Shown here piece by piece: positions 35,101 through 38,319 of a stretch of 64,000 bases of DNA. Source of the stretch: a virus. Within the stretch, counting starts at the first letter, position 1. Each line of letters begins with the position of its first letter. The translations under genes were made by a program, and so were the position numbers. The notes beneath the pieces are model-generated. The model did not search any database and was not told the DNA's origin. It saw only the letters and a list, made by a program, of their open reading frames with translations. Location of the stretch: positions 64,001 to 128,000 of IMG/VR virus record IMGVR_UViG_3300020463_002275; one strand, written 5' to 3'.

Positions 35101-37172
35101 TGAAACTGCAAGAAGTAACTTCCTACAATTTAAAGTCAACAACTATACTTAATGAAGGTTGGCAAGACTTAACAGAATCACAAAGAATATATTTAGGCCG
35201 TTGGGAGAGAGAACTTTGGCCTTTGTTAGAAGAATATGTAAAAGTAGCAGAAGCAACACTTACTGTTGATCAGATACAAGATATTTTTAAAGGTGCAGAA
35301 GCACAAGCAAATGCAGATGGCGACAACAGAAACTTATTAGGTAAAGCAGGCGCAGGAGCGGCCGCAGTTGCAAAACTACCTGTAGATATTGCTAAAAAAG
35401 TTGATGCTAAAATTAATGAACTTGGTAAAATGGCACAAAATGCAGGCCCTGTTAAAAACATGGATGCAAAGTTTGAAGAACTTAAAAAGAAAATAGGCGA
35501 CAGCGATTCAAAAATTTCCGCAGGAATAAAAAAAGTAAGTGATTGGGCAAAAGAAAATCCAGGCAAAGCAAGTGTAGCAGTAGGTATCCTTACAGCAGTA
35601 GCGGCTTTTGCAGGCGGACCAATGGGTGGTGCGGCCGCAGGTTTAATTTTACGTTCAACAAAAGAATTATTACAAGGCGAAAAACTTTCAGGTGCAATAG
35701 GCAAGTCAGTTAAGACAGCCGCTTATGGTGCTATTGCAGGTTGGGCATTAGAAGGCATTGGCGATTGGATGGAAGGCATTAGAGCAGAAGCAGTTCCATT
35801 TGATAAAGCAGAAGGATTGACTACAGTAAAAGTTGACTTTACTAAAACTTTAAGTGGTTGGGGATTTGAACACGAACAAAATTTAGTTAGTATGGTTGTT
35901 CCAGACAGTCAAGCAGGCGAGTTTGTTGAAATGGTTGAGAAGATGCGTGGGTTAGTAAACTCAGGCAATGATTCAGATGGTATTAGAGTGTTTAATAAAC
36001 TTTGGGCATTTACAAAATCATTTGACAAAGCAGAATTTTTAGACAACATGAATGTAACAAACCAAATTGCTAAGTCTGTTGCACAAGCCAACGATACAGC
36101 ATTACAAGCCATGACAGCAGTCAATGATGGTCTGTCTGCTATTGCACAAGGTAGTATGCAAACAGTTGATGATCCAGCAAAAGCCAAAGGCAAAATGCAA
36201 GTTGGCGGTAAGCCAGTTGAACCAGAGCAAGGCGAATTAGATCTTAAAGGTGGCGGTGCTCCGGCAAAAGCAGAAGCACTTGACATGGAGGAACGTTTTG
36301 AACAATTTCTAACAGAAGCAGAACCTGCACAAGGCGAACTAGGTTTAGATAATCCAAACACAGCAGGAGCCAAAGCAAAGCGTGGTTTAGGAAACTTAGC
36401 AAAAGGTGCATTAGGTGCAATTAAAGGAGCGGCTGGCAAAATAAAAGCAGGCGCAAAAGAATTAGGCAGTGCAGTAAGTGCAAAAAAACTTAACAAGGCA
36501 TGGAAAGCGGCAGGCGAACCTACAGATTCAGCAAGTATTATGAATATATTAGGAGATGCCGGTCTATCAAATGATCAGATTGCAACTATTGGTCAAACAG
36601 CAAAAGTTGATCTAAAGCCAGGTGCTAAATCAGATGAAAAACCAGCAGAGCCAAAAGCAGATGCGACTGCTCCAGCAAGTACTCCAGCAAGTGGTGCTTC
36701 AACTGATACTACAACTTCAACTGATACAACTACTTCCTCAGGTGGTGGTGGCGGAGGTGGCTCTAGCAGTACATCAACAGATACTACAACTACAACTTCA
36801 ACAGATGCTCCAGCAGGAGATGCTCCAGCGGCAGATGCTCCAGCAGGCGATGCACCAAAACCGAGTGCAGTTGCTAAAGGCGATACTATGAAAGCCAATG
36901 ATGGTAAAGAGTACAAATGGATGGGTGCTTTGTGGGTAGATGTTGCTACTAATAAACCTATAGGTATTATTCCATCAATGAAACAGGGATTACCTAATCC
37001 TAAATTAGATCCAATCATTGCGGCGGCTAAGAAAGATCCTGAAATGGCAAAAGCAATTAAAAGTCAAGTAATGGCAAAAGGTATTGATGCAGGTACATCA
37101 GGTGCACAAAAAGCGGCACAAGCCGGAGTCAAAGGTACAGAAAAACTTGATGCAAAAGGTATTGGTGCTTAA
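35100..37172 (+). CDS. Hypothetical late protein with hydrophobic Gly/Ala helices and Thr/Ser/Ala-Pro linkers; possible internal/ejected protein
   Basis: 690-aa ORF coupled to the previous gene (TAATG). Confidence 0.7.
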   Translation: MKLQEVTSYNLKSTTILNEGWQDLTESQRIYLGRWERELWPLLEEYVKVAEATLTVDQIQDIFKGAEAQANADGDNRNLLGKAGAGAAAVAKLPVDIAKKVDAKINELGKMAQNAGPVKNMDAKFEELKKKIGDSDSKISAGIKKVSDWAKENPGKASVAVGILTAVAAFAGGPMGGAAAGLILRSTKELLQGEKLSGAIGKSVKTAAYGAIAGWALEGIGDWMEGIRAEAVPFDKAEGLTTVKVDFTKTLSGWGFEHEQNLVSMVVPDSQAGEFVEMVEKMRGLVNSGNDSDGIRVFNKLWAFTKSFDKAEFLDNMNVTNQIAKSVAQANDTALQAMTAVNDGLSAIAQGSMQTVDDPAKAKGKMQVGGKPVEPEQGELDLKGGGAPAKAEALDMEERFEQFLTEAEPAQGELGLDNPNTAGAKAKRGLGNLAKGALGAIKGAAGKIKAGAKELGSAVSAKKLNKAWKAAGEPTDSASIMNILGDAGLSNDQIATIGQTAKVDLKPGAKSDEKPAEPKADATAPASTPASGASTDTTTSTDTTTSSGGGGGGGSSSTSTDTTTTTSTDAPAGDAPAADAPAGDAPKPSAVAKGDTMKANDGKEYKWMGALWVDVATNKPIGIIPSMKQGLPNPKLDPIIAAAKKDPEMAKAIKSQVMAKGIDAGTSGAQKAAQAGVKGTEKLDAKGIGA

Positions 37173-37354
37173 AAAAACGGCATCTGCGTTTTCTTAGCAG
37201 TTTCTAAATTTTCTTTTATTAAATCAGCGATTAGTTTTCTATCTTCAGGACCCATTTGAAATGCTTCGTCCATTGTCATGCTACCACGCATGTACCACAT
37301 AAGTTTGAAAATTTCAGATTTAAACTGTTTGCATTGGCCTTCTAAGTTATTCAC
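37169..37354 (-). CDS. gp51-like baseplate/tail assembly chaperone; possibly made as a -1 frameshift extension of the upstream gene
   Basis: LMWYMRG...EAF...EDRKLIADLIKENLE motif, directly after the gp26-like gene; frame is open back to 37414 with no ATG before the GTG. Confidence 0.7.
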   Translation of the reverse strand: MNNLEGQCKQFKSEIFKLMWYMRGSMTMDEAFQMGPEDRKLIADLIKENLETAKKTQMPFF

Positions 37355-37361
37355 CTCTTCT

Positions 37362-37405
37362 AGGATCTGTTCAATCGGCCAACTGACGATCCTTAGGCGA
37401 AAAAA
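37362..37405 (-). promoter_or_regulatory. Candidate -1 frameshift signal: U_UUU_UUC slippery heptamer plus 3' hairpin
   Basis: Heptamer at 37405-37399 in the correct phase (aaT TTT TTC), 5-nt spacer, stem AGGATC/GATCCT enclosing TCAGTT/GATTGA. Confidence 0.6.
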
Positions 37406-38319
37406 TTTGATTGATCAAAAACAATTGGAACTTCAAATGTTTCTGGTGCACCTTCTTTAATTTGTTCTTCGCTTGATCTAACTTCCATTGGCGGAACTTG
37501 AAATTCTTTCTTTTGTACTTCGATGTGATCACTTAGTGCTTTAAAAAATGCTTTGTCAGTATTTTCTAAAAACTCAACAATGTGATTTCTATCTGTAACT
37601 ACATCGTCACCAACTTTAATTGAAACAACACTATTAATAACCATGCCTAGTGTAATATCTCTTAGTTTTGTAAATGTAGTATTAAACTGTTTAAGTTTTT
37701 CATCTTCGTCAATTTTATCATTATTAACAAGGGCAAAGATTCTTTGCTCTTCAAATGTTTGCATTGACACTTTACTAAATTCTTTGTAAGTCAAAGGACG
37801 TATAGTAACAGTCAAATCGTTTGTTGTAAATGTATCTATAAATTTTGCACTAGTGTATCTATCTAATACCTGTCTTAAATCAACTGTATAATCTACCGGA
37901 TTTTTAGTTTCAGGTGCTGTAGCAGATATAGTCATATGCTCGCCATAAGAAGCAATTCTGATTGCAATTAAACATGCATCTATATCAAGACTTGGCATGC
38001 CCCAAGCATTTTTGATATTAGGAATACAACTGTGAATTAAGTCAACAGTGGCCTGTCCGCTAAGAAGTGCGTCCGGAGTTTTTAATGCTAGTTCATCTTT
38101 AGCAGTCATAGGCATAACAGGAAGTTCTCCTGTTTCTGTCATATCCAAACTATCTTCTGGATAATATTTTCCACCACTAGGAAGTGTTACATAAATTTTT
38201 GCTTGTCTAAAATGTCCTGCAAGTGGGTTAGGATTTAATTGTTTAGTTTTTTGATTTAACAAAGGATTGACATTATTTCCTTCGTTTTGTTTAAATTGTT
38301 CTGGGTTGAACTCTGGCAT
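37393..38319 (-). CDS. gp26: Baseplate hub assembly protein, gp26-like
   Basis: YVTLPSGGKYY...PMTAKDELALKTPDALLSG...LIAIRIASYG motif. Confidence 0.8.
   Translation of the reverse strand: MPEFNPEQFKQNEGNNVNPLLNQKTKQLNPNPLAGHFRQAKIYVTLPSGGKYYPEDSLDMTETGELPVMPMTAKDELALKTPDALLSGQATVDLIHSCIPNIKNAWGMPSLDIDACLIAIRIASYGEHMTISATAPETKNPVDYTVDLRQVLDRYTSAKFIDTFTTNDLTVTIRPLTYKEFSKVSMQTFEEQRIFALVNNDKIDEDEKLKQFNTTFTKLRDITLGMVINSVVSIKVGDDVVTDRNHIVEFLENTDKAFFKALSDHIEVQKKEFQVPPMEVRSSEEQIKEGAPETFEVPIVFDQSNFFA

Follow-up and report, generated by a model that had tools for sequence, protein, structure and literature searches.

How a conserved reading frame that has no conserved start codon of its own comes to be translated is the question raised by one locus of IMG/VR virus record IMGVR_UViG_3300020463_002275, a record of 181.9 kb with an estimated completeness of ~51%. 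The stretch analyzed here, hereafter the window, comprises 64,000 nucleotides (nt; positions 64,001 to 128,000 of the record) and carries on its minus strand a gene resembling gene 26 of phage T4, the end of which runs into a second open reading frame (ORF) in the -1 frame. An earlier note, made from the letters of the window, had proposed that the two frames are joined by programmed frameshifting. We estimate a probability of roughly 0.87 that a programmed -1 ribosomal frameshift on U_UUU_UUC yields two forms of one protein, of 308 and 383 amino acids (aa). Direct observation covers the slip signal and its conservation, the signature of coding that the -1 frame bears from the first codon past the slip, the finding that this frame has no start codon shared by the relatives, and natural proteins in which the long form is encoded in a single frame. 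By analogy with T4, we infer that both forms may act as assembly chaperones of the baseplate hub or tail.

The candidate slip site and its predicted products

The minus-strand ORF at 38319..37393, by direct reading and translation, encodes a gp26-like protein of 308 aa, which would be the 0-frame product, or short form, of a baseplate hub gene. This protein matches the Pfam family PF12322 (T4_baseplate) over residues 44-268 (E 6.6e-13; 49.3 bits, with a cut-off of 24.5) and phrog_150 (baseplate hub; E 1.5e-16). In an alignment with T4 gp26 and gp51, its residue F306 is nearly invariant and F307 is invariant, that is, the FF ending of the gp26-type body is present. The 3' end of the gene reads ...GAT CAA TCA AAT TTT TTC GCC TAA, and direct reading bore out the slippery heptamer T_TTT_TTC at 37399..37405 (minus strand), which stands in the X_XXY_YYZ phase (AAT TTT TTC) and is conserved in relatives. 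It is followed on the same strand by a 5-nt spacer, GCCTA (37394..37398), which overlaps the 0-frame stop codon TAA (37395-37393), and then by a hairpin (37362..37393) with arms AGGATC and GATCCT and an inner stem. The position of this hairpin, 5 nt past the heptamer, is as the earlier note had given it; folding, conservation of pairing and frozen synonymous sites make it a candidate frameshift stimulator.

Translation also agreed with the earlier account of the -1 frame, which is closed by a TGA (37415..37417, minus strand) three codons 5' of the heptamer, opens at 37414, reads FFRLRIVSWPIEQILEEVNNLEGQCK... and continues to a TAA at 37171-37169. From the heptamer to this stop codon, the -1 coding stretch (37169..37405, minus strand) has 78 codons, and its conservation, its database relatives and its alignment to the C-terminal part of T4 gp51 suggest that it specifies a gp51-C-like extension. 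The predicted transframe product (37169..38319, minus strand) would contain residues 1-307 from frame 0, followed by R L R I V... from frame -1, with the junction peptide EGAPETFEVPIVFDQSNFFR. The sizes proposed earlier for the two products, 308 aa and a 383-aa fusion, proved right (383 match columns in the profile alignment), and the fusion profile is collinear with the T4 gp51 family.

Because the TGA at 37417-37415 closes the -1 frame, no upstream start is possible in it, and the first ATG occurs only at codon 35 past the slip. The only start called by the ORF finder, for an ORF of 61 aa, is a GTG at 37352..37354 (minus strand), against which a GAGG directly abuts; the earlier description of a second ORF with no upstream ATG and only a GTG with a poorly spaced Shine-Dalgarno (SD) sequence was therefore accurate. 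Since this GTG is not conserved in relatives, which have GTT, GTA, GTC or GCC at the same codon, it is unlikely to be used.

We propose that most ribosomes on the gp26-like gene would terminate at the TAA and release the short form, and that a fraction would stall while two tRNA-Phe occupy UUU UUC, probably because the downstream hairpin detains them. The paused ribosomes would slip back by one base onto UUU UUU and translate 76 more codons in the -1 frame, giving a long form that would consist of the whole gp26-like body and, at the C-terminus, a helical domain matching the extension of T4 gp51. A single gene would in this way supply a fixed ratio of two baseplate-hub assembly factors, for which T4 uses the separate paralogous genes 26 and 51. 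Both the slipping and its efficiency are predictions from the sequence; the heptamer U_UU.U_UU.C belongs to the efficient class measured in Escherichia coli (PMC4066793).

Conservation of the junction and probable translation of the second frame

The gp26-like protein matched jumbo myoviruses, including Atu_ph07, Phosso, PA5oct, RaK2, the 121Q/PBECO4 group and others, at 25-32% identity and at one place in each record; a nucleotide search of the phage collection with the locus matched nothing. For comparison, a set of 88 jumbo-type loci and a set of 80 loci from T4-like cyanophages were assembled, and the removal of near-duplicates left 43 lineages. The proposal depended on the heptamer and the -1 phase being kept in homologues, and they are: TTTTTTC occurs in phase close to the gene's 3' end in all 88 jumbo-type loci and in 79 of the 80 cyanophage loci, the lone exception being a locus (L153) whose match length is not a multiple of three. 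The slip-bearing proteins reach as low as ~25% identity to the window protein. In eight GenBank jumbo phages, the gene ends xxT TTT TTC and the -1 frame continues as FF[R/Q]xxLL... into an ORF of 72-79 codons, and the same arrangement of heptamer and -1 frame was found in all 79 IMG/VR loci (38-93% identity). With a single exception, all the relatives examined have the heptamer unchanged and in phase, and the comparison indicates a signal far beyond chance.

The codons at the junction point to the level at which this constraint acts. In all 43 non-redundant lineages, the Phe-Phe pair of the junction is encoded by TTT TTC and the preceding codon ends in T. Elsewhere in the same ORFs, the FF pairs are encoded in mixed ways (TTC TTC 11, TTC TTT 7, TTT TTT 6 and TTT TTC 4), and the single Phe codons comprise 412 TTT and 163 TTC. 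Within the clade of the window, synonymous change is nil or low from codon -3 to codon +8, whereas Arg, Ile and Phe codons vary freely in the rest of the ORF. The invariable TTT TTC, the mixed codons elsewhere and the scarcity of synonymous changes argue that the constraint on the junction is exerted at the nucleotide level.

An identical fusion protein would also result if RNA polymerase added one U in the T6 run and normal translation followed. The homopolymer run that such transcriptional slippage would use is present, and slippage on runs of A or U is known in bacteria and phages (review PMC5009743). The run is, however, always exactly six T followed by C and never longer, its phase relative to frame 0 is fixed, and the hairpin begins at 5 to 7 nt, a spacing typical of ribosomal stimulators; each of these, by inference, argues against slippage by the polymerase. 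Efficient transcriptional slippage, moreover, needs runs longer than six, and we regard this explanation as very improbable.

The frame entered after the slip bears a coding signature of its own. The frame-0 residue after FF varies (A, E, V, G or D) and a stop codon follows 1 to 12 codons on, whereas the first codon past the slip in frame -1 is Arg in 42 of the 43 lineages and is followed by a conserved xxL[L/I]. Loci in which frame 0 continues for another 4 to 12 codons before its stop retain the FFRxxLL motif as well. Because the same nucleotides give a variable residue in frame 0 and Arg in frame -1, purifying selection acts on the -1 frame from the first codon past the slip site. The -1 peptide is conserved as a protein in the 43 lineages despite many synonymous changes, and an exhaustive profile search with these peptides found 664 relatives at E <= 0.001. 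This conservation contradicts the possibility that there is no recoding at all, the -1 ORF being a decaying remnant or an open frame by chance and the 308-aa protein the only product. In addition, the -1 domain is found at the C-terminus of long proteins that are intact, among them T4 gp51, described as essential in the T4 literature, and we found nothing that speaks for such a remnant, which is scarcely credible.

Downstream RNA structure, the conservation of which in homologues had also been left for comparison, was found in both main groups. In the clade of the window, the stem pairs in 88.5% of cells, compared with 25-46% when it is slid; two members, L029 and L034, rebuild the inner stem in different registers. 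In the cyanophage clade, a hairpin starts 7 nt past the heptamer and 83.6% of cells pair, compared with <50% when the 3' arm is slid; one pair is exchanged from CG to GC in 10 sequences, and the covariation exceeds that of all 500 shuffles. Different stems are present in other lineages, at distances of 1 to 18 nt past the heptamer. Downstream structure thus seems to be common among the relatives without being uniform, and the stimulator in the window remains a candidate. A scan of window positions 37100-37600 against Rfam found zero families. As a separate observation, the hairpin loop UUGGCC (37377-37382) is complementary to GGCCAA (37334-37339), ~37 nt downstream, with which it would form an H-type pseudoknot; both elements are kept in the closest relatives of the window and are absent in L029, L034 and L036.

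Several observations weigh against a frameshift as the source of the second product, and the most direct of them concern start codons. An ATG occurs in the -1 frame between its opening and codon +15 in 12 of the 43 lineages, although at differing positions, and among these are Atu_ph07 and Phosso, in which the stop and the start overlap as ATGA in the right frame; in PBECO4, BF17 and Sf-FR1, the overlap takes the form TAATG. In addition, several GenBank records annotate the second ORF as a separate coding sequence (CDS). The ORF might accordingly be a separate small gene ('gp51') that is translated in its own right, through restart or translational coupling around the stop codon of the gp26-like gene, and with an ATG so close to the junction, restart could contribute in those phages. 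The wider comparison, however, disagrees with this explanation. Between the point at which the -1 frame opens and codon +15, the window and 16 other lineages (17/43) lack ATG, GTG and TTG altogether, candidate starts are not conserved in position, the GTG of the window is GTT, GTA or GTC in close relatives, and the -1 ORF of PA5oct has zero ATG over its whole length; in most homologues, the second ORF lacks an ATG or SD of its own, and the presence of these would have counted against the earlier proposal. In most lineages, the -1 frame extends only 0 to 3 codons upstream before it is closed, so that an upstream start cannot reach it. The missing starts, the unconserved GTG, the case of PA5oct and the closure of the frame upstream together mean that independent initiation cannot explain the data. 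Furthermore, conservation of the -1 frame begins at FFR, with the codon directly after the heptamer and upstream of the annotated starts, and a separate gene would leave the synonymous-site invariance of TTT TTC unexplained. A gene of its own for the second ORF is therefore improbable as a general explanation, and a minority of phages could gain some additional expression by restart where ATGA or TAATG overlaps occur.

The remaining points on this side concern structure, completeness and homology. The hairpin of the window (AGGATC...GATCCT) is modest, with a folding energy of -11.9 kcal/mol and a z score of -2.1 relative to shuffled sequences, 7 of 200 of which equaled it. Its outer arms never vary within the clade, and covariation is consequently uninformative for it; in one large subclade (FFRITLLSQ...), no stable structure is evident downstream of the heptamer. 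As the record is only ~51% complete, a separate gene for the long form could lie elsewhere in the genome of this phage. Finally, the extension taken alone aligns with T4 gp51 over 24 residues (42-65 / 223-246; P 0.003), which is the right segment and a weak match.

Relation to T4 gp26 and gp51 and to frameshifted tail chaperones

T4 gp26 and gp51 are counted among the assembly chaperones of the hub; gp51 is essential, has no known function and does not occur in the particle (Leiman et al. 2010, PMC3004832). PF12322 matches both proteins, each over the full length of the domain, and gp51 has ~48 residues beyond it, which match phrog_634. The earlier note had called the second ORF of the window gp51-like, and at the profile level this description holds: the ORF appears to be the counterpart of the C-terminal extension of gp51. 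A profile of 32 predicted transframe proteins aligned with the T4 gp51 family (76-371 / 33-247 of 249; hhalign probability 93%, E 2.6e-7), and the alignment runs collinear through the junction. The small ORF of the cyanophages provides a bridge, as it matches phrog_634 at E 7.6e-27 and aligns to phrog_150 columns 238-278, directly after column 235, at which gp26 ends. The link between the extension and gp51 is weak on its own and draws on this full-length profile and the cyanophage bridge. The 81-aa -1 peptide of the window matched nothing in Pfam or PHROG even at E <= 1 to 10, and the domain defined for the gp51 C-terminus, PF28602, was unmatched even by T4 gp51 itself in the Pfam set used, from which it seems to be missing.

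T4 thus offers a comparison in which the two products are encoded apart. T4 gp26 (208 aa) ends at the conserved FF (...EFFELL), as does the short form here, with the pair encoded as TTC TTT, which is not slippery; T4 gp51 (249 aa) has an extra C-terminal domain, as is predicted for the long form. Because gp26 ends at FF and gp51 carries the extension, gp26 is best regarded as the counterpart of the short form and gp51 as that of the long form. Unlike the locus in the window, T4 has no frameshift but the divergently transcribed paralogous genes 26 and 51, and its annotation includes 26' (L010 2303-2590), a 95-aa product that starts internally and in frame and comprises the C-terminal part of gp26, which has no evident counterpart here.

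Long forms encoded in a single frame also exist outside T4. Among the best 150 matches to the -1 peptides, ~25 are proteins of 319-351 aa that are encoded by one ORF, end in this domain and have a junction of the form ...FRxxLI.... Two uncultured contigs have a short PF12322 gene (294 and 297 aa) with a long gene immediately after it; in one of them (L171), the FF of the short gene is TTC TTT and the slip site is lost, and in the other (L170), TTTTTTC is kept but the -1 frame closes after one codon. With T4 gene 26 and L171 both having TTC TTT and the -1 frame of L170 closed, the comparison indicates that, where a dedicated gene encodes the long form, either the slip signal or the -1 extension has disappeared from the short gene. 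The AAT TTT TTC kept by the short paralogue of the uncultured phage contig L170 (411-1295) may be a relic slip site. In a quick tree with long branches, supported solely by Shimodaira–Hasegawa-like approximate likelihood ratio test (SH-aLRT) values, T4 gp26 groups with the N-terminal domains of gp51 beside the cyanophage genes, and the uncultured short paralogues fall inside the window-type clade, which tentatively suggests two separate resolutions into two genes.

An AlphaFold2 model of one natural long form (P0120), built from an alignment of 20 sequences, had a predicted local distance difference test score (pLDDT) of 88.9 and a predicted template modeling score (pTM) of 0.85, with the junction residue F266 at the start of the C-terminal helical part. 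A sequence search of the PDB with the gp26 alignment gave a chance match only (E 0.37), and Foldseek and VIA-align searches with the long-form model gave only generic helical-hairpin matches (Z < 7) and no fold assignment.

Long-tailed phages share a conserved and almost universal -1 frameshift in their tail assembly chaperone genes (Xu, Hendrix and Duda 2004; review PMC5009743), and the earlier note had inferred that gp26 and gp51 are made here as a pair of the lambda G/GT type. The inference stands for the logic of the arrangement, in which a chaperone would be made in a short form and in one lengthened by a -1 shift, but does not stand as membership of that family, to which no link in sequence or fold was detected. 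In lambda, as predicted here, a -1 slip near the 3' end of an assembly-chaperone gene yields a short and a C-terminally extended form from one mRNA, and neither gpG nor gpGT is found in the virion, just as T4 gp51 is absent from the particle. There are also differences. No relation of the gp26-like gene to the lambda genes is detectable in sequence or fold, the pair in the window does not lie between the major tail or tube gene and the tape-measure gene, and the target in T4 is the baseplate hub. The slippery heptamer of lambda is G_GGA_AAG, compared with T_TTT_TTC here. Neither the gp26-like protein of the window nor its -1 peptide matched any tail-chaperone family in Pfam or PHROG, and, as no significant sequence or fold match was found, a structural link to lambda-type tail chaperones is neither demonstrated nor excluded. 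A likeness in the signal is offered by E/E+E' of P2, a contractile-tail phage in which a -1 shift on a T-rich slippery run leads into an extension frame; the P2 pair differs in having the gene position and family of the G/GT type and in not belonging to PF12322.

We would put forward, with confidence falling a little short of even, that gp26/gp51 is the T4 superfamily's missing counterpart of lambda G/GT. A single hub-chaperone gene with an obligatory -1 shift would then be the older state, kept in cyanophages and jumbo phages and divided into a pair of genes on two or more occasions (once in T4 proper and once in a jumbo lineage known from uncultured phages), and the ratio of short to long form would control assembly of the hub or the tape measure.

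Genomic setting, annotation and meaning for T4-related phages

The window carries a T4-type portal gene (PF07230, E 6e-109) and belongs to a giant marine T4-related phage. The gene pair lies between a convergent ORF of 690 aa and a divergent structural gene of 806 aa (38393..40813, plus strand), beyond which the portal gene is found. The earlier note had placed the pair next to the tape measure. The adjoining structural gene is real, but its identity as a tape measure was not confirmed: the protein matches only phrog_14121 ('virion structural protein', E 1.5e-7), and BLASTP against T4 gp29, which belongs to a different PHROG, gave nothing significant. It is a weak member of the family of RaK2 ORF088, the GenBank record of which notes similarity to a tape-measure protein, and it is in this sense a possible tape measure. 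Nor is such adjacency conserved, as the cyanophage pair is located elsewhere, among neck and baseplate genes.

Some further features of the window may be recorded. The convergent 690-aa ORF (35100-37172, plus strand), which has no family match beyond noise in Pfam or PHROG, has its last 4 nt within the terminal part of the -1 extension ORF (37169, minus strand), so that their stop codons overlap. A gene for a SegE-like GIY-YIG homing endonuclease (33327-33884, plus strand; PF19835, E 3.6e-35; phrog_447 and phrog_7363) is situated a few kb from the hub gene. Very long ORFs occur at 2240-17125 (minus strand, 4961 aa), 17125-20691 (minus strand, 1188 aa), 54126-58925 (plus strand, 1599 aa) and 59066-63952 (plus strand, 1628 aa).

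Current annotation treats the two frames as independent. The cyanophage pairs, which have the same two-frame layout, the same heptamer and a conserved hairpin 7 nt downstream, appear in GenBank as the separate genes 'gp26 baseplate hub' and 'gp51 baseplate hub assembly catalyst', and the record examined has no ribosomal slippage feature. None of the nine GenBank records examined contains such a feature; these records either show the second frame as a CDS of its own, in some cases truncated, or leave it without annotation. Downstream of the hub gene, the unannotated regions of PA5oct (L003, 2350-2572) and RaK2 (L005, 2350-2713) contain the conserved -1 extension ORF. A search of full-text literature, with most subscription journals outside its coverage, found no report of a gp26/gp51 frameshift, and a 2016 review of recoding describes the G-T frameshift as conserved among long-tailed phages 'except T4' (PMC5009743).

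If the frameshift operates as proposed, relatives of T4, including marine cyanophages and many jumbo phages, would use such a switch after all, in a different protein family. Recognition of the shift would also put right the entries for many phage genomes that now present the second frame as a doubtful small gene or leave it unannotated. In addition, loci with the slip site present, with the slip site lost and with an in-frame long form would provide a natural series in which recoding and gene duplication can be compared as means of controlling a ratio of products. Finally, the finding suggests that T4 genes 26 and 51 are the two products of such a gene written out as separate genes, which gives a testable origin and role for gp51.

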